From positions 152,089-216,088 of the forward strand of contig JANQEA010000035.1 in the NCBI GenBank assembly GCA_028278555.1: a stretch of 64,000 nucleotides of DNA. The letters are read 5' to 3'. Source of the DNA: Candidatus Bipolaricaulota bacterium (lineage in GTDB: Bacteria; Bipolaricaulota; Bipolaricaulia; UBA7950; UBA9294). The notes under the pieces were generated by a model. That model was not told the origin of the DNA. It made no database searches and saw only the letters and a program-made list of their open reading frames with translations. Shown here in pieces: positions 1,112 to 60,516 of this stretch. The translations under genes were made by a program, and so were the position numbers. Within the stretch, counting starts at the first letter, position 1; every line of letters starts with the position of its first letter.

Positions 1112-2101
1112 ATGAAGGCGTTCGTCACAGGCGGAACCGGGTTCCTGGGAGCCAACGTCGTCCGCGATCTGCTCGAACGGAACATCGGCGTCCGCGCCCT
1201 CTGCCGGCCGACGCCGTCGCGCGGAAACCTCGAGGGCCTCGACGTCGAGATCGTCGAGGGGGATCTTCGTGATGTGCAGTCGCTCCGCCGCGGGATGGCC
1301 GGCTGCGAGCTCGTCTTCCACGTCGGCGCCCTCTACTCGTTCTGGGTCCGACCTCCCGGTCTGATCTACGAGGTCAACGTCGATGGAACGCGGAACGTCT
1401 TCGACGCCGCCCTCGAAGAGGGGATCGCGCGGGTCGTCTACACGAGCTCGGTCGCGGCACTCGGCCTCCGCGACAATGGACATCCGGCCGACGAGACGAC
1501 CGCGACGTCACTCGCCGAGGTCGTCGGCGACTACAAGAAGACGAAGTACCTCGCCGAGCAGATCGCGCTCGAGTACAGCGCGAAGCTCCCGATCGTCATC
1601 GTCAATCCGAGCTTCCCGGTCGGACCGTGGGACGCGAAGCCGACTCCGACCGGCCAGACGATCGTCGACTTCCTCAACCGGAAGATGCCCGCCTACCTCG
1701 ATACCGGGATGAACGTCGTCGACGCCCAGGACGTCGCTCTCGGCCACTGGCTGGCCCTCGAGAAGGGGACGGTCGGCGAACGGTACATCCTCGGTGGCGA
1801 AAACGTGACGATGAAGGGGCTGTTGGATCTGCTCGCCGAGATCACCGGGTTGCCATCACCTAGAATCAGGCTCCCGTACACGCCGATCCTCGCGATGTCC
1901 TACCTAAACGCCGGGTTCTGCAAGCTCTTTCCTCGGATCACCCCGCGGATGACGCCGGAGACGATCCGGATGTCGAGCCACTACATGTACTTCGATCCGA
2001 CCAAGGCCGTCCGAGAGCTCGGTTTCCCGCAGACCCCTGCCAAGGACGCCCTCGCCAAGGCCGTCGACTGGTATGGGGAGAATGGGTACGTGAAGAACTG
2101 A
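1112..2101 (+). CDS. NAD-dependent epimerase/dehydratase (extended SDR; HpnA / dihydroflavonol-reductase-like)
   Basis: ATG at 1112 follows the SD GGAGG at 1101-1105. N-terminus is MKAFVTGGTGFLGANVV (Rossmann GxxGxxG) and a YxxxK motif (YKKTK) is present. The track ORF 752-2101 carries a spurious Arg-rich N-terminal extension. Confidence 0.85.
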   Translation: MKAFVTGGTGFLGANVVRDLLERNIGVRALCRPTPSRGNLEGLDVEIVEGDLRDVQSLRRGMAGCELVFHVGALYSFWVRPPGLIYEVNVDGTRNVFDAALEEGIARVVYTSSVAALGLRDNGHPADETTATSLAEVVGDYKKTKYLAEQIALEYSAKLPIVIVNPSFPVGPWDAKPTPTGQTIVDFLNRKMPAYLDTGMNVVDAQDVALGHWLALEKGTVGERYILGGENVTMKGLLDLLAEITGLPSPRIRLPYTPILAMSYLNAGFCKLFPRITPRMTPETIRMSSHYMYFDPTKAVRELGFPQTPAKDALAKAVDWYGENGYVKN

Positions 2102-2250
2102 GAGGCGGAAGTATTCGACGCGTGGCAGCTGTGAAACATCGACTTTCCACTCTCAGCGCTACGCTCACTCGACTCGCAGCGCCTGGAACACCGTCAGATC
2201 AACACTGTCTCTTCGAGCAGCGGCTTCTTGACTCTGATCGAAAGGATCAA

Positions 2251-3579
2251 CTACGGCAGCTTCTTGAGAATGGCCTTGATCTTCGAATCCAGCTTGTTCT
2301 TGAGAGTAGTGATGTTCGGGTAGAACACCACCGCGAAGTCCTTGATGTCGAAATGGAGCATCGTTCCTTCTCTTGCAGTAAAGATGACTCTCTTGTTGAC
2401 GCCGTGAGTGTATCCGATTTCGTAATAGACATTGGGTCTTTCGTGCGTGAGATCCGCAATGACGAATTGCGCTGAATCTATCGATTCCATGATCTTGTCA
2501 GTTATCTTCTCCGTATCCTCAACATCATCGACCCTGTAGGCCTTCAGATCGTTCTCTTCACATACCTCCTTGATCGCAGCGTGAACATCGTCCAGGCCTG
2601 GATCTTCCTTTGTCATGGCCATGATGATGAACACCTCTCTCGATAGCTGCGGTATCCCCGCACCGGTTTCTGCAGATGCCACAACTCCACCTCCCAATTC
2701 CCGATACAGATTAGCCAGCTTCTCCTGCTCAGCTGCAAGTTGGTGAGGTGTCTTCTTGCTTGAGTGCAAATCCTCGACCAGACTTGCAAGCCGAGCATAG
2801 CTCTGAAGCCATGCCTCTGCGATGAACCCAATCCAACGATTGTGATCCTCCACTTCGTCTACAGCGAGCAGTTCCTCGTAGTACTCAGCTCTGTTTCCCA
2901 GAAAGAAGCGATCGGTACCAATGAGCGTATGGTCGAGTCTGTATCCACCAATGAGCATAGCATAATTCGCTAGTAGACGCGCAACACGCCCGTTTCCATC
3001 TAGAAACGGGTGGATTCGGGCAATCCCGTAGTGCACAACAGCTGAGACTACCACCGGGTTAGCATCGGGATTGGATTTCACCCAGTGCAGCATAGCCTGG
3101 AGAGCAAGCGAAACTGTCTCTGGCTTCGGCGGAGTGTAGAGGATCTTGCGGTCCGGCATTCTGATAACGTAATTCTGTACTTCACGCAGCTTTCCTCCGC
3201 CGCTTCCGGGAGTGAGGCGTCGGTGGGCCTCCTGGATGAGCGGAAGACTGATGGGCGCGTCTTCTGCCGCACAATCCATTAGGTATTCGATCGCCTCTGC
3301 GTAAGCTTGAATCTCGTGTCCAGATACACCAGCATCGGGCGTGCGGATACCCCGGGGGATGCCCAGAGGGGTGTCTATCCCTGTAGCCGATAGGAACTCA
3401 CCAGATTGAAGAATGCTGATAATCTCGTCCCGGTTCTTGGAAATCGACAGTACTGTTTGAACGTAGGTGTAGTGACGCGTGATTCCCTGTAGCTTTGAGA
3501 CTAGATCAGGAGTGTAGCTGAACTCGATGCTGAAACTGTCAGTCATCTTGGACTCTGCGTTTCTCTCAACGACAGACAT
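2251..3579 (-). CDS. Fic-domain protein (predicted AMPylase / NMP-transferase) fused to a C-terminal TIR / nucleoside-2-deoxyribosyltransferase-like Rossmannoid domain
   Basis: The canonical Fic motif HPFLDGNGRVAR lies at aa 190-201 (nt 2977-3012). A coiled linker follows at aa ~270-314. The C-terminal ~125 aa read VFIIMAM...AYRVDDV...FVIADLTHERPNVYYEIGYTHGVNKRVIF...HFDI. This matches the hallmark pattern of TIR-like (COG4271/PF10137-type) and NDT-like domains (beta1 VFIxM, then DLT..PNV..E.G.A.G..K.VI). The start is either ATG 3579 or ATG 3546. Confidence 0.8.
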   Translation of the reverse strand: MSVVERNAESKMTDSFSIEFSYTPDLVSKLQGITRHYTYVQTVLSISKNRDEIISILQSGEFLSATGIDTPLGIPRGIRTPDAGVSGHEIQAYAEAIEYLMDCAAEDAPISLPLIQEAHRRLTPGSGGGKLREVQNYVIRMPDRKILYTPPKPETVSLALQAMLHWVKSNPDANPVVVSAVVHYGIARIHPFLDGNGRVARLLANYAMLIGGYRLDHTLIGTDRFFLGNRAEYYEELLAVDEVEDHNRWIGFIAEAWLQSYARLASLVEDLHSSKKTPHQLAAEQEKLANLYRELGGGVVASAETGAGIPQLSREVFIIMAMTKEDPGLDDVHAAIKEVCEENDLKAYRVDDVEDTEKITDKIMESIDSAQFVIADLTHERPNVYYEIGYTHGVNKRVIFTAREGTMLHFDIKDFAVVFYPNITTLKNKLDSKIKAILKKLP

Positions 3580-3601
3580 GGTGAGACATCAGACACGCCA
3601 T
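3566..3601 (-). CDS. Possible 11-codon upstream ORF (MACLMSHHVCR) overlapping the Fic start codon
   Basis: The only strong SD in the 286-nt gap (GGGAGG at 3607-3612, 5-nt spacer) precedes ATG 3601-3599, not the Fic ATG. The uORF ends at TGA 3568-3566 and spans the ATG at 3579. Speculative. Confidence 0.2.
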   Translation of the reverse strand: MACLMSHHVCR

Positions 3602-3865
3602 TCGAGCCTCCCTTCGCTGAACCCAGACTGCCGCCACATGTTCTGACTCTCTCCCATACCAGATTACCACTGGAACTCGCGCAGTGTAGGTTACCATTGT
3701 GGAGTACGTCGATCAATGCTCCGCCAGCGAGCCAACTTCCCCCCACCTCTTCAGCCTTGCTTGAGAATCGCAATCCCATCTCCCACAGGCCGCAGCGGCC
3801 TCTGAACGGCGCGGCGTATCTCGTACTACTCGTTGATGCCGTGCAGACAGAATGCCGCCTCCAGT

Positions 3866-4309
3866 TCATCTCCTACGGAGCGGGTGCTTCCGCGCCTTCA
3901 GTGTCAGCAGACCGAACGCAATGAGCCCTGCTATTAAGGACGCGATGAATGAGAACTCCAGCTCCGGCCATGGTTTTGCTTCAAGCTGAAGACCACAGAA
4001 CGGAGCAATGAATCCGACGGCGATAGCAGCTGCAATGCCCAGGCTCAAACTCGCCATCGCACGTGTCAGAAGGTCACGCGCAAGCGATCTTCCGATTTGC
4101 AGGGCGGCCAGACCAACCAGTGCGCCAACAAGCAGATCCCAGCTGTCGTAGGTGCCAGGCGCATACTCGACTGCAAGTAACGCAGCTAGAAGGGTAGCTC
4201 CCGCCGCTCCACGGCCGACGGTAGTTTCTTGAGTCGCGTTTCTCACTAGTACTCCTCCTCTCGCGATCCTCTCCCACACGCGCATCGGCATCAATGATTT
4301 CTGAGCCAA
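3866..4309 (-). CDS. Small integral membrane protein (about 4 predicted TM helices), function unknown
   Basis: 147-aa ORF with four hydrophobic stretches (ATLLAALLAVEYA, WDLLVGALVGLAALQIG, LSLGIAAAIAVGFIAPFCGL, FSFIASLIAGLIAFGLLTL) and a basic C-terminal tail. It is on the same strand as, and upstream of, the Fic fusion gene, inside the low-GC stretch. No family was recognised. Confidence 0.5.
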   Translation of the reverse strand: MAQKSLMPMRVWERIARGGVLVRNATQETTVGRGAAGATLLAALLAVEYAPGTYDSWDLLVGALVGLAALQIGRSLARDLLTRAMASLSLGIAAAIAVGFIAPFCGLQLEAKPWPELEFSFIASLIAGLIAFGLLTLKARKHPLRRR

Positions 4310-4375
4310 TCCTGCGGATGAGGACTTGCTCGATCAAGAGCGACTACCATCCCGCTCGGAGCATCCCTGCAAGAT

Positions 4376-4773
4376 TCACTCGAACACGTTGCCAGTGACG
4401 TTCCCTGCGGCATCGGTTTCTAGCAGTCCTTTGGACGAATCCAGGAGTACGAGTTCATTCTCTCACGAGTCGCGAACCACGACGCAACGACCGATCCGGA
4501 TGTCGAACGGTTGGGCAACTGTCGTACCGCCCGCTTCCGTGAAGCAGACAGCGGCCTCGTCGGCGTTCGATACCTTTAGGTCGATCTCGGGCGGCTTGGG
4601 CTCCGTGTGAAGCACGATCTCCGTTTCGTCCTTCCCTAGCGCTAGCCAACCTCATCTTCGGTCCGCCAAAGGAGTTCCAGCCTAAGCTTGTCTCGGTAGA
4701 ACGACAGACCCGATTCGAGGTCGTCCACGGACAGCTGCACACAATCCACCTTCTCGATGAGCGGTTCGGTCAC
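4376..4773 (-). pseudogene. Decayed glyoxalase/bleomycin-resistance/VOC-family gene (frameshift plus in-frame stop)
   Basis: SD GGAGGA plus GTG 4773 opens VTEPLIEKVDCVQLSVDDLESGLSFYRDKLRLELLWRTEDEVG, which hits TAG near 4640. The VOC-like sequence continues in another frame (WLALGKDETEIVLHTEPKPPEIDLKVSNADEAAVCFTEAGGTTVAQPFDIRIGRCVVVRDS). TGA at 4463-4465 then interrupts the DPxGN-type motif, and the frame continues ENELVLLDSSKG... to TGA 4376-4378. Confidence 0.6.
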
Positions 4774-4790
4774 GGTTTCCTCCGGAGTCT

Positions 4791-6170
4791 CTACCTCTTC
4801 AGCGCAGCCTTGACCAGCTGCCGACCTAGATCCCAGAGTCCGCCGCGGAGCTTGTGCGCTTTGTCGAGGGTCGCGTCAATGGCTGAGAGCGCGAAGTCCA
4901 CATCCTCGTCCGAGAGGATCAGCGGCGGGAGGAACTTGATGATGTTCACCCGGTGGCCCGACACCTGGGTGAGGAGCCGGTGGTCGCGCATCAGACCCAT
5001 GACAACGAGCTGGGCGAAGAGCCCGGCCTGCATCGTTTCGAGCGCCTTCCACGCCGCCTTCAGCTTGAGCGACTTCGGTGGCCCGAACTCCATCCCGATC
5101 ATCAGTCCCTTCCCGCGGACGTCGTGGAGCATCTCGTACCGCGACTGCATGTCACGGAGGCCGGCGAGGAGCCGCTCCCCCTGCCGAGCGGCATTCTCGA
5201 TCAGGTTCTCCGACTCCAGCACTTCGAGCGTCGCTAGGCCTGCCCCCATCGCCAGCTCGTTCATCCCGAACGTGTTCGAGTGGACGACGCACCGCTCGAG
5301 TCCGGAGAACGTCTTCTTGTGCAGGTCGCGGCGGATCAGGATCGCGCCGACCGGGATGAACCCGCCGGAGAGGGCCTTCGAGATCGGAACGATGTCCGGT
5401 TCGAGGCCCCAATGCTCGCCGCCGAAGAAGCGGCCGGTCCGGCCGAGTCCGGCCTGGATCTCGTCGACGATGAAGACCGTCCCGTGCTTCCGGCAGAGCC
5501 GCTGCGCCTCGGGGAGGTACTCGTCGTCCGGCATGTAGACGCCCTTTCCCTGGATCGGCTCGGCGATGAACGCGGCCACATCCGCGCGCTCAAGCTCGCG
5601 CTTGAGCGCGTTCAGGTCGTTCAACGGGACGCCCGTGGAGGGAAGGAGCTGTCCGAACCCCTCGCGGAAGTGCGGGCTCCCGTTCACCGAGAGGGCCCCG
5701 AGGGTGAGTCCATGGAACGCGTGATCGATGTAGACGAACCGGTCACGCTTCGTCGCGGCACGGGAGAACTTCAGCGATCCCTCGACCGCTTCGGCCCCGG
5801 AGTTGGTGAAGAAGACAGCGTCGAGCCCAGGGTAGCTACGCTGGGCCCGTTCGGTCAGTCGCTCGGCGAGGAGGCCGGCGAGGAGCGGACAGTCCATCTG
5901 GATCAGGTTTGGCCGATCGAGGTCGAGCAGTTGGTGAAGGGTCTCCTTCAGGACCGGATGGCTCCGGCCGACCTGGTAGACGCCGTAGCCGGAGAGGAAG
6001 TCGAGGTACCGATTCCCACCGTCGTCGTAGAGGTACGCCCCCTCGCCGCGTGTGTAGGCTACGTCGTAGTCGATGATCTGCAGGACCCTCGCCAACGCCG
6101 GATTGACGTGGCGCTTGTGCAATTCGATTTGTTCCCCGAGCCGTTCTTCGATCAGCTTCGCGATCTCCAT
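4791..6170 (-). CDS. Class-III PLP-dependent aminotransferase (acetylornithine/GABA/putrescine aminotransferase family)
   Basis: 459 aa with the family motifs SGAEAVE, DEIQAGLGRTGRFF and SKALSGG (PLP lysine). Confidence 0.9.
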   Translation of the reverse strand: MEIAKLIEERLGEQIELHKRHVNPALARVLQIIDYDVAYTRGEGAYLYDDGGNRYLDFLSGYGVYQVGRSHPVLKETLHQLLDLDRPNLIQMDCPLLAGLLAERLTERAQRSYPGLDAVFFTNSGAEAVEGSLKFSRAATKRDRFVYIDHAFHGLTLGALSVNGSPHFREGFGQLLPSTGVPLNDLNALKRELERADVAAFIAEPIQGKGVYMPDDEYLPEAQRLCRKHGTVFIVDEIQAGLGRTGRFFGGEHWGLEPDIVPISKALSGGFIPVGAILIRRDLHKKTFSGLERCVVHSNTFGMNELAMGAGLATLEVLESENLIENAARQGERLLAGLRDMQSRYEMLHDVRGKGLMIGMEFGPPKSLKLKAAWKALETMQAGLFAQLVVMGLMRDHRLLTQVSGHRVNIIKFLPPLILSDEDVDFALSAIDATLDKAHKLRGGLWDLGRQLVKAALKR

Positions 6171-10407: not shown

Positions 10408-11400
10408 ATGGACCGGTACGAACAGATCCCGGAATCGGAGAAGCGCGATCGCTACGAGCGGCTCGCGCGGAAGGCCCTCGCCGCGTACGGGCTGCCCGAC
10501 GTGCGGCTGACCCCGATCGGCACGTCGACGCTTGACGTCTTCGAGGTATCGACGGGCGATCCTTCGAGGCACTACGCACTTCGGATCTGTCCGCCGGAGG
10601 TATCGACCGACCGACTCCAGCGTGAGATCCTCTGGCTGACGGCCCTCCGTCGCGACACGAACCTGTCGGTCCCCGAGCCGATTCTCAGCCTGGACGGTGA
10701 GCTGATCCGGAAGGTGGCTGTCGCGGGGGTTCATGGCTTCCGTCCGTGCATCCTCTTCCGCTGGGTCGAGGGCGAAACCTCCGGCGAGCTGACGCCGGAG
10801 CAGCTCCACGCCGTCGGTCGACTGATGGGACAGCTCCACGCACATGCCGAGACGTTCCGCTGGCCGGAGGAGATCACGCCGCCGCGGCGGAACGCGACGA
10901 TGATGTCCGAGGTTCTCGACGAGGATCTGGTCGCGGCGCACTACGGGCCCGTTCGTCTCGACGTCTTCCGAAAGGCGATCGAGTCGATCGCAACAACGAT
11001 GGGCCGTCTTCGGGACGGGTCGGGCGTCGCCGGCGTGATCCACGGCCGGCTGAACCCACGCCGTCTTCTCTTCGCTGAGGAGGGCGTGGGTGCCGTCGGG
11101 TTTGCGGCCTGCCGATGGGGGTACTACGCCTACGATCTCGCGACGATCCGAAGCCACGTTGCAGGACGGGAGATCGGCGCCGCGCTCGTCGCCGAACTCC
11201 TCAAAGGGTATCGATCGGTCCGCGAACTCCCGCCGGAGGTCGAGCGAGCGATTCCCGCATTCGAGGCGCTTCACTCGATCGACCGAATCCAGAAGGCGCT
11301 ACGACGGCCCGATCGAACAAGTGCGAGCGATCGGAACCTCAAGGGAGAATTCGAGGCGCTCCATCGCGGATGGACGTCCGCGGACCACTTGGAGAGATGA
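10408..11400 (+). CDS. Aminoglycoside-phosphotransferase/CotS-family protein with a degenerate catalytic site (predicted pseudokinase)
   Basis: The fold-typical layout matches the family (…YALRI…, …YAYDLATI…). However, the Brenner motif HGDLxxxN reads HGRLNPRR and the DFxx metal-binding motif reads VGFAAC. Start is ATG 10408. The track ORF from 10111 is antisense overlap. Confidence 0.7.
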   Translation: MDRYEQIPESEKRDRYERLARKALAAYGLPDVRLTPIGTSTLDVFEVSTGDPSRHYALRICPPEVSTDRLQREILWLTALRRDTNLSVPEPILSLDGELIRKVAVAGVHGFRPCILFRWVEGETSGELTPEQLHAVGRLMGQLHAHAETFRWPEEITPPRRNATMMSEVLDEDLVAAHYGPVRLDVFRKAIESIATTMGRLRDGSGVAGVIHGRLNPRRLLFAEEGVGAVGFAACRWGYYAYDLATIRSHVAGREIGAALVAELLKGYRSVRELPPEVERAIPAFEALHSIDRIQKALRRPDRTSASDRNLKGEFEALHRGWTSADHLER

Positions 11401-11451: not shown

Positions 11452-12267
11452 CTAGAAACCCCAAACGGTCGGATCGAACGTCGTCAGGCTGTCCGGCGAG
11501 AAGACCTCATCGGCGATCTCGGCGTCGGGCCGTCGACGCTCGATCAAGGTGATCAGCGTCGAGCTTTCGTCGAGCACATCGGTGCTCAGCATTTCCGCAA
11601 ACGTCAGCATCCCCTCGAACTCGGTCAGGGAGATGACTTCGATCGTCGACGAGAGGTTCCCGAGGTCGTTGTACGACTCGGCCTTCAGCATCAGGAACGC
11701 TTCGGTATCGACCCAGATGATCGAGCGGGGCGTATCGGTGTCGACGCCCTCCTTCGCGACCGATTCGATCACGTAGGCCATCCGCGTCTCCTCGCCGATC
11801 ACCAGCTCCTCCTCACGAAGGATCGTCGCCACGAAGTCGTCCCGGTCGTTCTCGCCACCGAGATCGTCGTACGACATCGAGCTCCCGGCAAAGCTGCCGC
11901 CGCGCTCCTCGTCCGAAACGAGTTCCTTCGGGATGCCGAGGAGCGGAAGGTAGAGCCAGAGGCGCGAGTCGTCGCCGTCATCGATCTCATGGGTCAGGAA
12001 GATCGTCCCGGCCACGTCGGTTGGCTCGATGAAGTAGATGAGCGAGAAGCCGGGCTTCGACAGCATCCCGAACAGGTTGCCTGAAGTCGTCCCGTCGCGG
12101 TACGTGTTGTCGAACCGAAGCGTCCCGATCATGCTCCCTTCGGCCAGCTTGTCGGCTTCCTCTTCCATCCGGTCGAGGATCTCGTCGGCGGTCAACGCCG
12201 CCGCCGCGAATCCCGCCAGAAGCACCATCACTGCCGTGATCGTCCAAACCATCGTCTTCTTGTACAT
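11452..12267 (-). CDS. LolA-like outer-membrane lipoprotein-sorting family protein (secreted)
   Basis: Signal peptide (VWTITAVMVLLAGFAAAALTA) followed by LTADEILDRM..., the typical opening of LolA_like (PF17131-type) proteins. It lies immediately downstream of an MMPL/RND exporter, a recurrent pairing. Confidence 0.75.
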   Translation of the reverse strand: MYKKTMVWTITAVMVLLAGFAAAALTADEILDRMEEEADKLAEGSMIGTLRFDNTYRDGTTSGNLFGMLSKPGFSLIYFIEPTDVAGTIFLTHEIDDGDDSRLWLYLPLLGIPKELVSDEERGGSFAGSSMSYDDLGGENDRDDFVATILREEELVIGEETRMAYVIESVAKEGVDTDTPRSIIWVDTEAFLMLKAESYNDLGNLSSTIEVISLTEFEGMLTFAEMLSTDVLDESSTLITLIERRRPDAEIADEVFSPDSLTTFDPTVWGF

Positions 12268-12313: not shown

Positions 12314-14611
12314 CTATCGATCGCGCTTCCACGCTGCTCGCGACAGGAACTTCGGTTGCCACTGCACGAGGATCGCCGGGATGATCGAGATCGCCGACAG
12401 GGCGCTCACGCCCATCGTCAGTGCAATCTGCCAGCCGAACGTTCGGATTCCCTTGAACGAGGCGAAGATCAGGATGAAGAACCCGAGCGCAACCGTAAGG
12501 GCGTTGTAGGTAATGCCGCGTCCCGTCGTCTGGATCGTCGCCTGGAGCGATCGCTCGGCATTCCGGTCCTTTCGGTACTCCGCACGGAAGCGGGAGATGA
12601 AGTGGATCGAGTAGTCAACCCCGATGCCGATCGCGACGACCGAGACCATCAGCGTCATGATGTCGAGCGGCTGGCCGGTGTAGGCCATGATCCCCATCGA
12701 GAACGTCACCGTCAGGATCAGCGGAATCGCCGCAATCAGGCCGGCGACGACCGATCCCATCAAGATCATGACGAGCACGGCGACGGCAGAGATCGTCGTT
12801 GCCAGACCGATCAGCTGGCTGTTCTGCATCTGGGTGAACATCCGGTTCATCAGCGTCGTTCCGCCGATCATCCGGACTCTCATGGTTCCATCTGCAGGGA
12901 AGTGCTCGTCGAGGTAGCCTTGCACGAGCTTCGCGAGGCGGGAGACGTTGCCGGATGAGCCCATCTGATACATCCCGGTCACCGTCCCGGCGGAGAAGTC
13001 GCCGACGGCCATGTCGCCGAGTGTCCCACCCTGGAACGTGTACAGAAGCAAGAGCTGCGAGATCATCTCCCGACTCTCGGGGATGACATAGTAGGCCGGA
13101 TCGTCGGCGTTGAACTTCTCGTTCATCTGCCGGACGAGCGTCGTCAACGAGAAGGTCTTTGCGACACCGTTGTCGAGGAGGAACGCCTCCAGATCGAGCA
13201 TCGCGTTCAGCACCACCGGATCCTTCAATCCGTCCCGGCGCCCCGTATCGAACTCGACCATCAGACTCATATCACCGGAGAAGTACTCCGACGTGAAGTC
13301 GAGGATCTGAACCGCCTCGTGCTCCTCGCCGAGGAATTCCTCGTTCGACGTCTCAATTCGCAGACGCGGGATCCCGGCGACCATCACGCCGAAGATGATC
13401 AACGCCACGAGAAGGACCGTCTTCCGGTGTCCGACGATGACCTTTTCGAACGCAATGAGGACGCGCGTCAGTGGCCGGAACCCCTTCTTGCTCAGATCTC
13501 GAACTCTCGGCTTCTTCAGCAGCGAGAAGACGGCCGGAATCATCACGAGCGAGAAGAGCATCGCAGCCAAGACGCCGATTGCCGTGACGATGCCGAAATG
13601 GCGCTGAGGTACGAGGAACGCCGAAAGAAGTGACAGGAAACCGACGGCGGTCGTCAGCGAGGTCATGACCACCGGCGCCTTCATCTCCTGCATCGTGTTG
13701 AAGATCGCTTCGCGCTTCTCGATCCCCTTGGCGATCTCCTCGTTATAGCGGTTCAGGACGTGGATCGCATCGGCAATACCGATCGCCAGGAGGAGGATCG
13801 GCGCGATGAACGACATCGTCGTCATCGGGAAGCCGAGAAGGACCATTGCCCCCATCGCAACGATCACCGACAACAGCACGATCGCAATCGGCAGGAGAAT
13901 CCCGCGGATCGTCACGAACGATGCGAACAGGAGCGCGACCATCACGAGGATCGCCAGCGGAAAGAGGAGCGTCGTGTCGGCTTCCATCTCCTCCGCCATG
14001 ACCGTGTCGAAGTACGCGTCGCCGTAGATGTACAGGGTGTCACCGTCGCCGCGGTTCTCGTCGACGATGGCGACGATGTCCGGCGTGATGCCGTACTCGT
14101 CGGCCCCGACCTCGAGTTCGATGTTGATCAGCGCAGCCTGCCCGGACTCGCTGACAACGCCACCGATCAGGTTCTCATCGGCCATCAGCCGCTCGCGGAA
14201 GATCTCCATGTCTTCCGGTGTCCGCGGCGCGACGCCGTCTGGCGCGGCCTTGCGGACAGAAAGCGCCGTCTCGGTTCCGACAATCGTCTGGGAGTTCAGC
14301 GGCGTGCTGACCGCCTTGACCCCCGGAATCGCCTCGATCCCGTCGGTCATCCGCTCGATCTTTCCGAGCGTCGTCTCGTTGAAGATGCCGCCCTCGTTGA
14401 ACAGCATCACCATGATCCCCCACGACCGGCCGTACCGCTCCTCCGCCTCGTCCATCAGGACGATGATCGGATCGTCATCGGCCATGAACTCGCGGAAGTC
14501 GGTCTCCTGCTCCAGAAACTGGATCGGGTACGCAAGAGCCACGGCTAGCAACAGCGTCGCGGCGATCGTCCAGATTGGATGATCGACCGCAAATCGAATC
14601 AATCGGTTCAT
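12314..14611 (-). CDS. MMPL/RND-superfamily exporter (COG1033-type, two 6-TM bundles)
   Basis: About 765 aa with a duplicated architecture of periplasmic domain plus TM bundle. Start ATG 14611 forms an ATGA overlap with the upstream gene stop (14608-14610). Confidence 0.9.
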   Translation of the reverse strand: MNRLIRFAVDHPIWTIAATLLLAVALAYPIQFLEQETDFREFMADDDPIIVLMDEAEERYGRSWGIMVMLFNEGGIFNETTLGKIERMTDGIEAIPGVKAVSTPLNSQTIVGTETALSVRKAAPDGVAPRTPEDMEIFRERLMADENLIGGVVSESGQAALINIELEVGADEYGITPDIVAIVDENRGDGDTLYIYGDAYFDTVMAEEMEADTTLLFPLAILVMVALLFASFVTIRGILLPIAIVLLSVIVAMGAMVLLGFPMTTMSFIAPILLLAIGIADAIHVLNRYNEEIAKGIEKREAIFNTMQEMKAPVVMTSLTTAVGFLSLLSAFLVPQRHFGIVTAIGVLAAMLFSLVMIPAVFSLLKKPRVRDLSKKGFRPLTRVLIAFEKVIVGHRKTVLLVALIIFGVMVAGIPRLRIETSNEEFLGEEHEAVQILDFTSEYFSGDMSLMVEFDTGRRDGLKDPVVLNAMLDLEAFLLDNGVAKTFSLTTLVRQMNEKFNADDPAYYVIPESREMISQLLLLYTFQGGTLGDMAVGDFSAGTVTGMYQMGSSGNVSRLAKLVQGYLDEHFPADGTMRVRMIGGTTLMNRMFTQMQNSQLIGLATTISAVAVLVMILMGSVVAGLIAAIPLILTVTFSMGIMAYTGQPLDIMTLMVSVVAIGIGVDYSIHFISRFRAEYRKDRNAERSLQATIQTTGRGITYNALTVALGFFILIFASFKGIRTFGWQIALTMGVSALSAISIIPAILVQWQPKFLSRAAWKRDR

Positions 14612-15114
14612 CGGATCCATCCCTTCGTCGAATAGGCGGCCCAGAGCAGGCCGGGCCAAAGGTCTTCGGTCACGTCAATCCCCTCGCCGATCCCGGCAAA
14701 AACCTGCTCGATGATTCCTGCGATTGCGTCGAGCCCGGCAGCCACGCTCGGCGACAGTGCGCTCATCCCGGCGCTGACGATCCATATGTGGCTCGCCGTT
14801 CCGTCGTCCAATCCTCTCGGAAGGATGACGATCAGGTCATACGGCTCCTCGTCCACGCCGGGGAGCCGGTCGGCAAGTGGGTCGTCGTAGCTCGACATCA
14901 CATCGGCGAGCGTGATCCCCACGTCGAACATCCCAACGGAGCGGAGCGCTCCGACCAATCCTGCGACGCGCATCGTCGAGTTGAACGTCTTTGTCTCGTC
15001 GACGACCAGCACCCTGACGAGGGGCGGAGCGTCCTGCGCGAGCCCGCCAAGCGGGATCGCGATCGCGACCATCATCAGCGCAATCAACAGAGCGTGCGAG
15101 CGTTTCGACATCAC
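14608..15114 (-). CDS. Secreted hypothetical protein (signal peptide), operon partner of the MMPL exporter
   Basis: N-terminal signal peptide (ALLIALMMVAIAIPLGGLAQD). It is overlap-coupled to genes on both sides (ATGA at 15111-15114 and 14608-14611). No family was recognised. Confidence 0.55.
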   Translation of the reverse strand: MMSKRSHALLIALMMVAIAIPLGGLAQDAPPLVRVLVVDETKTFNSTMRVAGLVGALRSVGMFDVGITLADVMSSYDDPLADRLPGVDEEPYDLIVILPRGLDDGTASHIWIVSAGMSALSPSVAAGLDAIAGIIEQVFAGIGEGIDVTEDLWPGLLWAAYSTKGWIR

Positions 15115-15617
15115 GAACCTCCTCCGTATTCGGCCATCCGTTCCTTCTTCAGTTCGGGGTATCGAACCTTCCAGCGGTCGGCCAATCGCGGAAGCTCTTC
15201 CTCGACGTAGTCGAAGAAGACCATCATCTCCAATAGTCGCTCTTTCGCCTCGATCGGTTCACCTTCGAGCGCGGCAAGACCGAGGGCCGCCAGTTCCTTG
15301 TGCCGCTGGAGGTGCTCCGTCCGCTGGACGTACATGTCCATCCAGATCCCCGGACGGATGCGATAGTAGTGGCGCCGATGTCCGGGAAGGCTCACCTTCT
15401 CAATCACACTAAGCCGCAGGAGCAGCCGGGTTGCCATGCTGATCGAACCCCGGCTCGCCTGGAGGCGCTCGGCCAGTTCGTCCATCGATAGGTACGGGGG
15501 CACACAAACCTGGAGTGCCCCCAGAACGCGGCCGGCCATGTGCGAGAGGCCATGCTCTTCCATCATGTCACCTGTCATCTCCACAAATCGCCTCTCGGCA
15601 TCGAGGGTCTTCACCAT
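15111..15617 (-). CDS. MarR/GbsR-family winged-helix transcriptional regulator
   Basis: The GbsR-like N-terminus (FVEMTGDMMEEHGLSHMAGRVLGAL) and wHTH segment (SMDELAERLQASRGSISMATRLLLRLSVIEKV) are present. The SD GGAGGA precedes ATG 15617. Confidence 0.75.
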   Translation of the reverse strand: MVKTLDAERRFVEMTGDMMEEHGLSHMAGRVLGALQVCVPPYLSMDELAERLQASRGSISMATRLLLRLSVIEKVSLPGHRRHYYRIRPGIWMDMYVQRTEHLQRHKELAALGLAALEGEPIEAKERLLEMMVFFDYVEEELPRLADRWKVRYPELKKERMAEYGGGS

Positions 15618-23782: not shown

Positions 23783-25789
23783 ATGGTTCAAATGTCGAAA
23801 CTCGGGAAACGCATCTGCGTTGTGTGCGCGATCATCCTTGTGGCAGCTGTTGCTATGACCTGCGTTGCGCAGGAGTACGGAAAGGATAACCCACAAGCGT
23901 GGGGCGGATACCCTGAGGGATACAAGTTTGGTGCTGATGGAACCCAGCCGGATCATCCTGACGGATACGACGGCTGGCCAGCAGACCATCCCAACAATCC
24001 CAACAAGGGCTACGCCGGCAAAGGCGGCAAGGGCGCGGACGCGACTAAAGAAGGCCACGCAGCTGGGAATGGAGGGAAGGGTGGTGCTGGACCAAAGAAT
24101 GATGATGGCCCCCTTAATTCCTGGAACGGCGGCAAAGGCGGAGCCGGCGGAGGCAGCTCAGTTCCGGGAATACGCGGTGGAAATGGCGGCAAAGGCGGCG
24201 ATTCCACACACGGAGCCGGAGGCGATGGCGGCAATGGCGGCGATGGCGGCGAGGACGATGTGACGGTGAAGCACTCCGCCGGCGGTAACGGCGGCAAAGG
24301 CGGAGACAGCGTCAACGGTAACGGCGGCAAGGGCGGAGACGCTGGGAAGGGTAGCGACAGTGCGCCCGGCGGAAACGGCGGCGACGGAGGCACCAGCATT
24401 CATAAGACAGGAGGAGCGGGGGGTGACGGCGGCGACGGCGGCAGCAATGGCGAGGGTGGCAACGGAGGAAGTGGCGGTCACACGAGACATGGGACGGGCG
24501 GACCGGGCGGCAATGGCGGAAACGGCGGCGCGAGCAAGATTCCAGGACAGAAGGGAAAGACGGGAGGTGAGGGCGGCGATGGCGGCAATGGGTATGTCGG
24601 CGGTCCCTGCGACAAGGTAGGTAACGGGGCCGGAGGCAAGGGCGGACAAGGCGGGCAAGGCGGCGCGGGTTACTCTGGCGACGATGAGAACGACGCAACG
24701 GGCGGCGGGGATGGTGGGAAAGGCGGGGCCGGAGGAAATGCCGGAGACGGGGAAGATGCATCCGCGGGCAATGGCGGGGATGGTGGGAAAGGCGGCACAG
24801 CGAACAAGAAACCTGCAATTGGGGGCACTGGCGGGAAGGGTGGCAAGGGCGGCCGCTCTGGGCTCGGCAACAAAGGCGGCACTGGCGGAAAGGGTGGACC
24901 AGGAGGAGATGGACCAGACAAGCATGGCGGAGAAGGCGGGGCTCCTGGTGAAGGCGGAGACTATTCCCCATCTGGCCCCATGAAGCCTGGCAAAGGAGGC
25001 ATGGGTGGCAGCGGCGGAAAGGGAAGCCCCGAAAAAAAGGATCGAAGTCGTGAGAGAGGTGCCTCCGGCTCTTGTGTGAGATACGTCTGCCTTCCCTTCT
25101 CAGGTTTCGGATGGGAACGGGCTTGGACCTCGGACACTGATCGGGCCGAGTGTGTTGGCTTGGGCCTTTGCTGCGTCGGCCTAGATGTGGGCGTCGAAGT
25201 CGTGACAGTCGACCATGCCGGAATGCTGTCCGACATCATAGATCTCACACCACTGCTAGGCTGGTGGAGCAGCGAGTCGTACTCCCCGATGATCGGCGTG
25301 GCCATCACTGCGCTTCTCCCGGAATGCGGAACCGGGCTACCTCTTGTCGACATAGCCTATGGCTCGGCCAGCATCCCTGTGAGTGGTCACGCCGAGTGGA
25401 TCCTCGAAGATTCCGATTATGGACTCGCGGAGATCCAGGGCATCCTTGGCATAACCCGTGCGTCCTTGGGATTCGGGATGCGCATCGGTGCACTCTGCGA
25501 ATGCCCTGTGCTGACACCGTACGTCGACCTCAAAGCGGGAATCGCACAGTCGTGGTTAGAGTTCGAGGATGTCCAATCCGGGATGGATTCGGTAGATCTG
25601 CGGACACTGCTAGAAACTAACACAAGTGCTATCACACAGTACTACGTGCAAGCTTCCATGGGAGCCTCGTTCTCACTCGGTCCACAGCTTGACCTTCGTC
25701 TTGTCGGGACTGGAAGGATCTCGGGGGGAGCGGATCAATCAACCCATTTCGAGTTCGGGGGAAGTCTGTCACTGGGGCTCCGCTTCTAG
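23783..25789 (+). CDS. Secreted glycine-rich repeat protein with a C-terminal beta-barrel-like (OMP/autotransporter-like) domain
   Basis: Signal peptide (KRICVVCAIILVAAVAMTCVAQE). About 340 aa consist of (GGX)n blocks such as GGNGGKGGD. A Cys-rich junction follows. The C-terminal ~240 aa have alternating hydrophobic beta-strand-like patterning and end in ...GGSLSLGLRF with a terminal Phe. Confidence 0.7.
   Translation: MVQMSKLGKRICVVCAIILVAAVAMTCVAQEYGKDNPQAWGGYPEGYKFGADGTQPDHPDGYDGWPADHPNNPNKGYAGKGGKGADATKEGHAAGNGGKGGAGPKNDDGPLNSWNGGKGGAGGGSSVPGIRGGNGGKGGDSTHGAGGDGGNGGDGGEDDVTVKHSAGGNGGKGGDSVNGNGGKGGDAGKGSDSAPGGNGGDGGTSIHKTGGAGGDGGDGGSNGEGGNGGSGGHTRHGTGGPGGNGGNGGASKIPGQKGKTGGEGGDGGNGYVGGPCDKVGNGAGGKGGQGGQGGAGYSGDDENDATGGGDGGKGGAGGNAGDGEDASAGNGGDGGKGGTANKKPAIGGTGGKGGKGGRSGLGNKGGTGGKGGPGGDGPDKHGGEGGAPGEGGDYSPSGPMKPGKGGMGGSGGKGSPEKKDRSRERGASGSCVRYVCLPFSGFGWERAWTSDTDRAECVGLGLCCVGLDVGVEVVTVDHAGMLSDIIDLTPLLGWWSSESYSPMIGVAITALLPECGTGLPLVDIAYGSASIPVSGHAEWILEDSDYGLAEIQGILGITRASLGFGMRIGALCECPVLTPYVDLKAGIAQSWLEFEDVQSGMDSVDLRTLLETNTSAITQYYVQASMGASFSLGPQLDLRLVGTGRISGGADQSTHFEFGGSLSLGLRF
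24005..25034 (+). repeat. Degenerate tandem coding repeats (GGC/GGA-rich, encoding about 14 GGxGGxGG blocks)
   Basis: Recurrent ggcggcaa(a/g)ggcgg(a/c)ga-type units occur throughout. The antisense frames read as Pro-rich pseudo-ORFs. Confidence 0.6.
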
Positions 25790-60440: not shown

Positions 60441-60516
60441 TGGTGGGTGGTACAGGGCTCGAACCTGTGACCTCATGCACGTCAAGCATGCGCTCTCCCA
60501 GCTGAGCTAACCACCC
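60441..60516 (-). tRNA. tRNA-Val (anticodon GAC), CCA encoded
   Basis: The reverse complement GGGTGGTTAGCTCAGCTGGGAGAGCGCATGCTTGACGTGCATGAGGTCACAGGTTCGAGCCCTGTACCACCCACCA folds as a cloverleaf. It has a 7-bp acceptor, a GCTC/GAGC D-stem, a CATGC/GCATG anticodon stem with loop TTGACGT, and an ACAGG/CCTGT T-stem with a TTCGAGC loop. Confidence 0.95.

Follow-up and report, generated by a model that had tools for sequence, protein, structure and literature searches.

A 2,689-bp tract at positions 2102–4790 of a 64,000-nt stretch of a Candidatus Bipolaricaulota bacterium contig (JANQEA010000035.1, assembly GCA_028278555.1; the whole stretch is referred to here as the window) is very probably a horizontally acquired foreign insertion. 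The insert has a GC content of 0.546 and lies exactly between two convergent stop codons. On its left is an hpnA-like NAD-dependent sugar epimerase (1115–2101, + strand; TIGR03466 HpnA, 433.5 bits against a cutoff of 367.65, and PF01370; GC 0.646), and on its right is a class-III aminotransferase (4791–6170, − strand; PF00202, 298 bits; GC 0.65). The most conspicuous passenger is a gene in which a Fic domain is fused to a TIR/NDT-like module. Taken together, a foreign islet, a variable slot between two core genes and a Fic-fusion passenger provide a likely overall explanation for the tract.

Loci around homologues of the left-flank gene were drawn from 185,579 species genomes, and the ten closest (L002–L011) were compared with the window. 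All ten are uncultured metagenome-assembled genomes (MAGs), with HpnA proteins that are 64–81% identical. In every one of the ten, blastn homology to the window stops at 2091–2111 and restarts at 4791–4798. The interior of the insert has no DNA or protein match in any of these relatives, and tblastn with the Fic fusion, the membrane open reading frame (ORF) and the VOC gene described below finds nothing within 10 kb of the site in any of them. The empty site can be seen in L009, L004 and L007, where the 3′ end of the aminotransferase abuts or overlaps the epimerase stop; in L009 the two genes are convergent and their stop codons overlap in the palindrome GCTAGC. Since the two core genes meet or overlap at the stop codons in these three relatives, the ancestral order is epimerase and aminotransferase, convergent and without a spacer. 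A sequence-only reading of this region had proposed a horizontally acquired accessory cassette and an alignment against relatives to find out whether it is an indel. That comparison agrees with the proposal, with the tract missing from the syntenic site in all ten relatives, and the empty site together with composition supports acquisition. The same reading had placed the cassette within an epimerase–VOC–aminotransferase backbone, which does not hold: the backbone is epimerase–aminotransferase, and the VOC pseudogene, which none of the relatives has, is part of the tract.

The right-flank gene is itself subject to loss. Among the window and the ten relatives, only the window, L007 and L009 have a complete aminotransferase; the gene is cut to 3′ fragments of 60–288 bp in L002, L003, L004 and L010. 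Because a 3′ stub is all that is left in at least four relatives, the aminotransferase is dispensable in this clade even though it is a flanking 'core' gene. The record titles of the relatives are inconsistent: nine of L002–L011 are named 'uncultured Thermotogae bacterium' and L005 is named 'Candidatus Bipolaricaulia bacterium', despite their mutual synteny.

The tract differs from its surroundings in every compositional measure that we applied. The whole window has a GC content of 0.633 (standard deviation 0.0255 among 1-kb windows). The values are 0.540 for 2102–4375 and 0.546 for 2102–4790, against 0.637 for the remainder, and 2251–3250 is the lowest-GC 1-kb window in the 64 kb (0.517, ∼4.5 standard deviations under the mean). 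The Fic and membrane ORFs have GC contents at third codon positions (GC3) of 0.58 and 0.56, respectively, compared with 0.87 in both the epimerase and the aminotransferase and 0.78 ± 0.07 across the 52 long ORFs of the window. The raw tetranucleotide distance between 2102–4790 and the contig is 0.477, where 246 windows give a mean of 0.196 and a standard deviation of 0.057; windows that overlap the insert rank at the top of these 246. After correction for composition, the tetranucleotide deviation of the insert ranks second, behind a glycine-repeat gene at ∼23–26 kb. That gene (23783–25789, + strand) encodes 668 residues that start like a signal peptide and include long glycine-rich repeats (GGxGG) and a C-terminal part free of repeats; it has no Pfam family, and its region forms a second GC dip (0.575).

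Within the insert, GC is 0.516 for the Fic gene, 0.58 for a 286-nt gap, 0.574 for the membrane ORF and 0.583 for the VOC remnant. A non-coding spacer of 149 bp (2102–2250, GC 0.55) separates the epimerase stop from the stop codon of the Fic fusion. The shift in composition and codon choice that the sequence-only reading had placed after the epimerase stop is thus borne out by the GC, GC3 and k-mer profiles, and the listed content (a Fic fusion, a 286-nt gap and a membrane protein gene, all on the − strand) is present as described. Its by-eye estimate of ∼50% GC fits the Fic gene and is slightly low for the insert as a whole. The left edge that it gave, at 2101/2102, is retained; its right edge at 4375 is not, as low GC continues through the VOC remnant to 4790.

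The junction between the epimerase and the aminotransferase holds different DNA in different relatives. In L003, the slot contains HicA (61 bits), a HicB-like gene and DUF3788; in L007, a HicB-like gene and a PD-(D/E)XK protein (PDDEXK_3, 91 bits). L010 carries a 1,223-residue protein with CHAT, STAND-type ATPase (AAA_16) and TPR regions, L002 a PD-Lambda-3_A-like protein (2.6e-9) and L011 a DUF3800 protein. As in the window, slot DNA in the relatives is mostly below the GC content of the host contig. There is good reason to believe that this junction is a lineage-wide variable hotspot, with differing cargo of toxin–antitoxin or defence type in each MAG. The earlier picture of an acquired cassette thus holds, with the correction that the site is not a one-off: the slot is used recurrently in relatives.

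Several of the occupied slots contain pieces of the flanking genes. The order in L007 is epimerase, a 210-bp aminotransferase 3′ fragment, cargo and a complete aminotransferase. The fragment (10984–11200) is 82% identical to the 3′ end of the aminotransferase of L007 itself (gene 12589–13968) and 83% identical to that of L003. It is not a fresh duplication, because it is only 82% identical to the resident gene, and it may have been imported along with the cargo. The 4-kb insert of L010 is bordered on either side by aminotransferase 3′-end sequence, ∼25 bp at one edge (816–845) and 82 bp at the other (4803–4884), and the insert of L003 contains a second copy, 155 bp long, of the epimerase (hpnA) 3′ end (11538–11690). 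A search for aminotransferase or hpnA 3′-end remnants in the insert of the window, including the 149-bp spacer, found none.

The classical integrative signature, consisting of an integrase, a tRNA target and flanking direct repeats, is absent from the insert. No integrase ORF is found in the first 12 kb (1–12 kb) of the window, and no tRNA gene lies near the insert, the nearest being at 60441, more than 55 kb away. A search of 1700–5300 for direct and inverted repeats returned short imperfect pairs and no convincing boundary repeat. We rejected an exact 15-nt direct repeat (1962–1976 and 4492–4506) as a boundary signal: it is significant relative to shuffled sequence, yet such a repeat occurs in 10 of 46 real windows of 3.6 kb from the same contig. 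The sequence-only reading, which had seen no integrase, tRNA or repeat at the boundary, is upheld by these searches. Because integrase, tRNA and att repeats are missing and fragments of the flanking genes bracket cargo in relatives, insertion and turnover may be independent of a dedicated integrase, a proposition to which we give even chances. Possible routes are homologous recombination via the conserved flanking genes and illegitimate recombination at the gene-free junction. An insertion where two stop codons meet would disrupt nothing.

Integrase-less chromosomal hotspots and defence islets between core genes have been described for the pangenomes of E. coli and Pseudomonas. The present slot resembles them in its fixed core-gene junction, its varied toxin–antitoxin and defence cargo, its deviant composition and its lack of an integrase or tRNA. 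It differs from them in being a 0–20-bp junction of convergent stop codons, found in uncultured MAGs, and in that one of the flanking core genes, the aminotransferase, has itself been eroded repeatedly.

The principal passenger is a 442-residue Fic/DrHyd (TIR–NDT-like) fusion encoded at 2251–3579 on the − strand. It matches PF02661 at 71.1 bits (cutoff 24) and the PADLOC SoFic model at 5.9e-38. The SoFic-like Fic core spans residues 87–279 (2743–3321) and aligns with positions 91–282 of the 361 in the PADLOC model; phmmer relates it to the SoFic structure 3eqx at 5e-14, and Foldseek matches Fic structures with an E-value of 4e-6. The catalytic motif HPFLDGNGRVAR (residues 190–201; 2977–3012) can be read intact in the sequence, and this motif, with the pattern HxFx(D/E)GNGRxxR, is invariant in the fusion family and in Fic-only relatives. 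With a PF02661 score above the gathering threshold and the motif in place, the protein is a member of the Fic/Fido AMP-transferase family.

The position of the class-II inhibitory helix reads differently. When aligned with 45 Fic-only relatives, residues 64–70 (3370–3390) are S-A-T-G-I-D-T. Members of the fusion family have S-A/S/Y-T/V-G-I-D-T at this site, whereas nearly all 45 Fic-only relatives have S-x-x-I-E-G-T/N (IEGT or IEGN), and the canonical inhibitory (S/T)xxxE(G/N) motif is absent from the fusion family. We infer from this alignment that autoinhibition of the Fic domain has probably been lost. The nearest Fic-only proteins are 25–38% identical and have the architecture Fic_N + Fic (+HTH_13); unlike them, the fusion protein has no match to PF13784 or PF11972.

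SoFic of Shewanella oneidensis and E. coli (PADLOC PDLC03963; PDB 3eqx and 3zcn) is the best profile match to the fusion protein. It has been reported as a toxic AMPylating defence protein whose activity is controlled by its C-terminal domain (PMC12249575). The two proteins have in common the HxFxDGNGRxxR motif, the Fic fold and their occurrence as single-gene accessory elements. In contrast to SoFic, the fusion protein lacks the N-terminal Fic_N region and the inhibitory S-x-x-x-E-G motif, and the C-terminal winged-helix domain is replaced by the TIR/NDT-like module. A full-length SoFic match, comprising Fic_N, Fic and the C-terminal winged helix, is therefore not obtained.

The C-terminal module (C-module; residues 312–442, 2254–2646, − strand) is a Rossmannoid domain that is modelled with confidence (predicted local distance difference test score, pLDDT, of 90). 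Its Foldseek matches include DNPH1/Rcl and BcmB, with template-modelling (TM) scores of 0.70–0.77. Based on conservation in homologues, Glu387 (codon at 2419–2421, − strand) is the presumed catalytic nucleophile. This residue is invariant in sets of 109 and 119 homologues, and Asp376, Asn383, Gly389 and an HFD motif are invariant in the set of 119. A phmmer alignment pairs Glu387 with the Glu in the 'GVGYELG' segment of DNPH1; we take the Glu of 'GYELG' to be the catalytic residue of DNPH1. The fold and the conserved Glu together place the C-module in the NDT/DrHyd superfamily.

Matches to curated families are weak. The C-module scores 21.6 bits against PF05014, under the cutoff of 28.8, and 99 of the 109 homologues match this family weakly (best 3e-7). 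PF10137 matches just 10 of the 109. A DUF4062/Swarozyc identity was considered and rejected, as Pfam gives no DUF4062 match. By fold and presumed catalytic residue, the C-module is a member of the DrHyd/TIR-like superfamily that falls outside every curated family, and it belongs to the TIR–DrHyd–SLOG class described in PMC9503650. DrHyd and TIR-like modules are reported to serve conflict systems as NADase effectors (PMC9503650; 10.64898/2026.05.01.722283). For comparison, we grouped TIR-like NADases (Cap12/PycTIR, ThsB and the DUF4062 'Swarozyc') with the DrHyd/NDT superfamily. Unlike the known N-glycosidases of that superfamily (DNPH1/Rcl, MilB, BcmB and nucleoside 2-deoxyribosyltransferases), the C-module is found fused to Fic, and this fusion occurs only in the present small family.

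The C-module itself (P0005–P0120) represents a large, tightly conserved family without a dedicated Pfam model. There are 2,770 representatives with E-values <1e-10 to the whole fusion query, mostly via the C-module. It is usually C-terminal, behind variable domains that include guanylate-kinase-like P-loop, RuvB-like AAA+, HEAT and Hcp domains. On L085, a stand-alone Fic gene (14438–15481, − strand) lies ∼5 kb from the kinase-like C-module protein P0014, which may be coincidence.

The complete fusion is very rare: when 1.84 billion representatives were scanned exhaustively with HMMER, it was shared only by P0002 (56% identical) and by P0004 (80%, 5′-truncated); P0003 is grouped with P0002 (P0002/P0003, 56%) as having the same architecture. 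A single-protein scan of metagenome contigs gave no further members of the fusion family, scans of both metagenome and viral contigs with an alignment as query brought up Fic-only relatives alone (25–38% identity) and plasmid and phage collections contain no record that covers at least 80% of the fusion protein. On L001 (a 35%-GC contig; 636–1214, − strand), a full-length 56% homologue is located 1.5 kb from a ThsB_TIR gene (PF08937, 65.5 bits).

The closest homologue is on L082. Relative to this copy, the ratio of nonsynonymous to synonymous substitution rates (dN/dS) is 0.08 for the whole gene (Fic part, 0.15; C-module, 0.03), and the GC3 of the gene in the window (0.58) equals that of the L082 copy, which is found on a 51.6%-GC contig. 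Given this dN/dS and the equal GC3, the Fic-fusion gene is a real gene under purifying selection. Homologues of the fusion are located on contigs with 35–52% GC which, together with the GC3 match to L082, argues for a lower-GC donor and little amelioration. The L082 copy (77% DNA identity) is 5′-truncated and is flanked by two ∼60-bp repeats (1–60 and ∼1170–1235) that translate as 'RFGRLTRQNRGLSPIVLP', an arrangement that points to rearrangement through the repeats or to a small mobile repeat.

The insert thus contains an intact, conserved two-domain gene in which both presumed catalytic centres are kept. A defence or toxin role is the likeliest one for its product, at about even odds in our judgement. 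In that case the fusion would work as a SoFic-type toxin or abortive-infection module made up of one gene, in which the Fic domain AMPylates host or phage proteins. A module of the C-terminal type would be expected to cleave the N-glycosidic bond of NAD+ or of nucleoside monophosphates. It could be a second effector that depletes nucleotides or NAD, or a nucleotide-responsive regulator that takes the place of the lost autoinhibition; the TIR/NDT-like module would stand where SoFic has its controlling C-terminal domain. A more ambitious extension, in which the fusion is a new type of immune protein that unites two enzymes in one self-sufficient unit and the C-module family is a widespread and undescribed class of defence proteins, is speculative and rather improbable. 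The TIR/NDT-like module would then either control the inhibitor-less Fic toxin, by sensing nucleotides or by oligomerizing, or join it as an effector that destroys nucleotides or NAD.

The rest of the insert consists of non-coding DNA, an orphan ORF and a dead gene. The 286-nt gap (3580–3865) has no Rfam match, its predicted RNA fold is no better than that of shuffled sequences (z = +1.5) and scans for sigma-70-like promoters and terminators in it are at or below chance. An Rfam miRNA match inside the Fic gene (E-value 0.54) was also attributed to chance. The adjacent ORF (3866–4309, − strand) encodes a predicted membrane protein of 147 residues with no homologue but itself among 5.8 billion proteins and no Pfam or NCBIfam family; a PADLOC match at 0.039 was dismissed as chance. 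The sequence-only reading had assigned this protein four transmembrane segments, and hydropathy gives three clear hydrophobic segments and a weak fourth. The VOC/glyoxalase-family pseudogene (4376–4773, − strand) is within the insert and contains one frameshift and one in-frame TGA, which confirm the earlier view that the gene at the right edge is decayed. Its match to PF00903 (23.7 bits, cutoff 20.6) is obtained only on a stitched conceptual translation. Both the orphan ORF and the VOC pseudogene could be co-travellers of the Fic fusion or older debris. Farther along the window, 10 kb from the hpnA-like epimerase, is an MMPL/sterol-sensing-domain RND transporter gene (12314–14659, − strand; PF03176, 167 bits; PF12349, 58 bits). 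We assume that this transporter is HpnN-like, and its position is consistent with a hopanoid-related neighbourhood.

Two alternatives deny that the tract was inserted. An assembly or binning artefact, in which foreign reads are joined in a chimera, is conceivable because the sequence comes from a metagenome-type assembly; we consider it extremely improbable, given that synteny is conserved on both flanks, the breakpoints fall exactly at two stop codons, the Fic gene is on a single contig of 407,888 bp and independent MAGs carry insertions at the same junction. The tract could instead be ancestral and lost in the relatives, its odd composition having arisen from relaxed selection or a local mutation bias. 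Deletions are frequent at this locus, most of the aminotransferase being gone from six of the ten relatives, and one cargo gene is a pseudogene. Ancestry would nevertheless call for precise, independent deletions, since near (L004 and L007) and far (L009) relatives share the junction with abutting stops. Relaxed selection is also difficult to reconcile with a gene that is constrained at a dN/dS of 0.08 yet has the GC3 of a homologue on a 51.6%-GC contig, and the only relatives of the Fic gene are on low-GC (35–52%) contigs. We regard this explanation as very unlikely.

Two further alternatives accept a foreign tract and concern its history and its function. The slot may have been filled in two steps, with VOC arriving first and then decaying, and the Fic fusion (perhaps together with the membrane ORF) arriving later beside it to give a layered hotspot. 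The VOC remnant, the gap and the membrane ORF are 6–7 GC points above the Fic gene, VOC is dead while the Fic gene is intact under purifying selection and the slots of relatives are layered, with flank-gene fragments between cargo genes. Such GC differences also arise among genes of a single donor, however, and the window has no internal boundary, repeat or flank-gene fragment between VOC and the remainder; a two-step origin is possible, and we lean against it. With respect to function, Fic proteins include toxins of toxin–antitoxin systems and housekeeping regulators. The fusion might accordingly be an addiction-type or growth-control toxin, for instance one that keeps the islet in the genome, or a regulator of host proteins, that has no anti-phage role and whose C-module serves nucleotide metabolism. 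HicAB toxin–antitoxin genes in the slots of relatives would fit such a role, as would the occurrence of C-module proteins amid housekeeping genes and their frequent fusion to P-loop kinases, and the best fold matches of the C-module are the metabolic N-glycosidases MilB, DNPH1 and BcmB. This explanation is weakened by the absence of an adjacent antitoxin candidate, by the SoFic defence model as best profile match, by the homologue that neighbours ThsB_TIR and by a patchy, singleton distribution that is typical of conflict genes, and we consider it unlikely.

Several observations weigh against the explanation that we prefer, a foreign islet in a variable slot with a Fic-fusion passenger of defence or toxin type. 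The nearest relative has only ∼80% HpnA identity, and the relatives are MAGs, so the slot structures may hold assembly errors. The membrane ORF lacks homologues and might not represent a gene. The resemblance to SoFic is partial: the SoFic equivalog NF046030 scores 69.6 bits against a cutoff of 550, and the PADLOC SoFic model is matched over the core only. Confidence in the structural model falls to pLDDT <50 around the presumed inhibitory helix, which leaves the alignment as the sole basis for lost autoinhibition. Antitoxin families were sought in the insert proteins and none matched, the neighbours of the fusion being only the orphan membrane ORF and the VOC pseudogene. Finally, the neighbourhoods of three other C-module proteins, on three long contigs, are mostly housekeeping genes and not defence islands.

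The transfer event is of a known kind, an integrase-less hotspot islet, and the architecture of the passenger is unusual. For annotation, 2102–4790 is best treated as accessory DNA in which the VOC gene is a decayed piece of cargo, and the epimerase–aminotransferase junction is best marked as a variable slot in a little-studied uncultured lineage. The slot would illustrate integrase-free turnover of defence and toxin genes in a candidate phylum, and the duplicated fragments of flanking genes are footprints that could be mined across MAGs. The passenger and the hotspot footprints merit note, and we make no strong claim for them. A Fic core without the canonical inhibitory motif, joined to a TIR/NDT-like module, has turned up in no more than three or four of billions of sequences. 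Should it be active, the protein would be a compact system in which a Fic toxin is gated without the classical glutamate, and it would show the function of the large C-module family.

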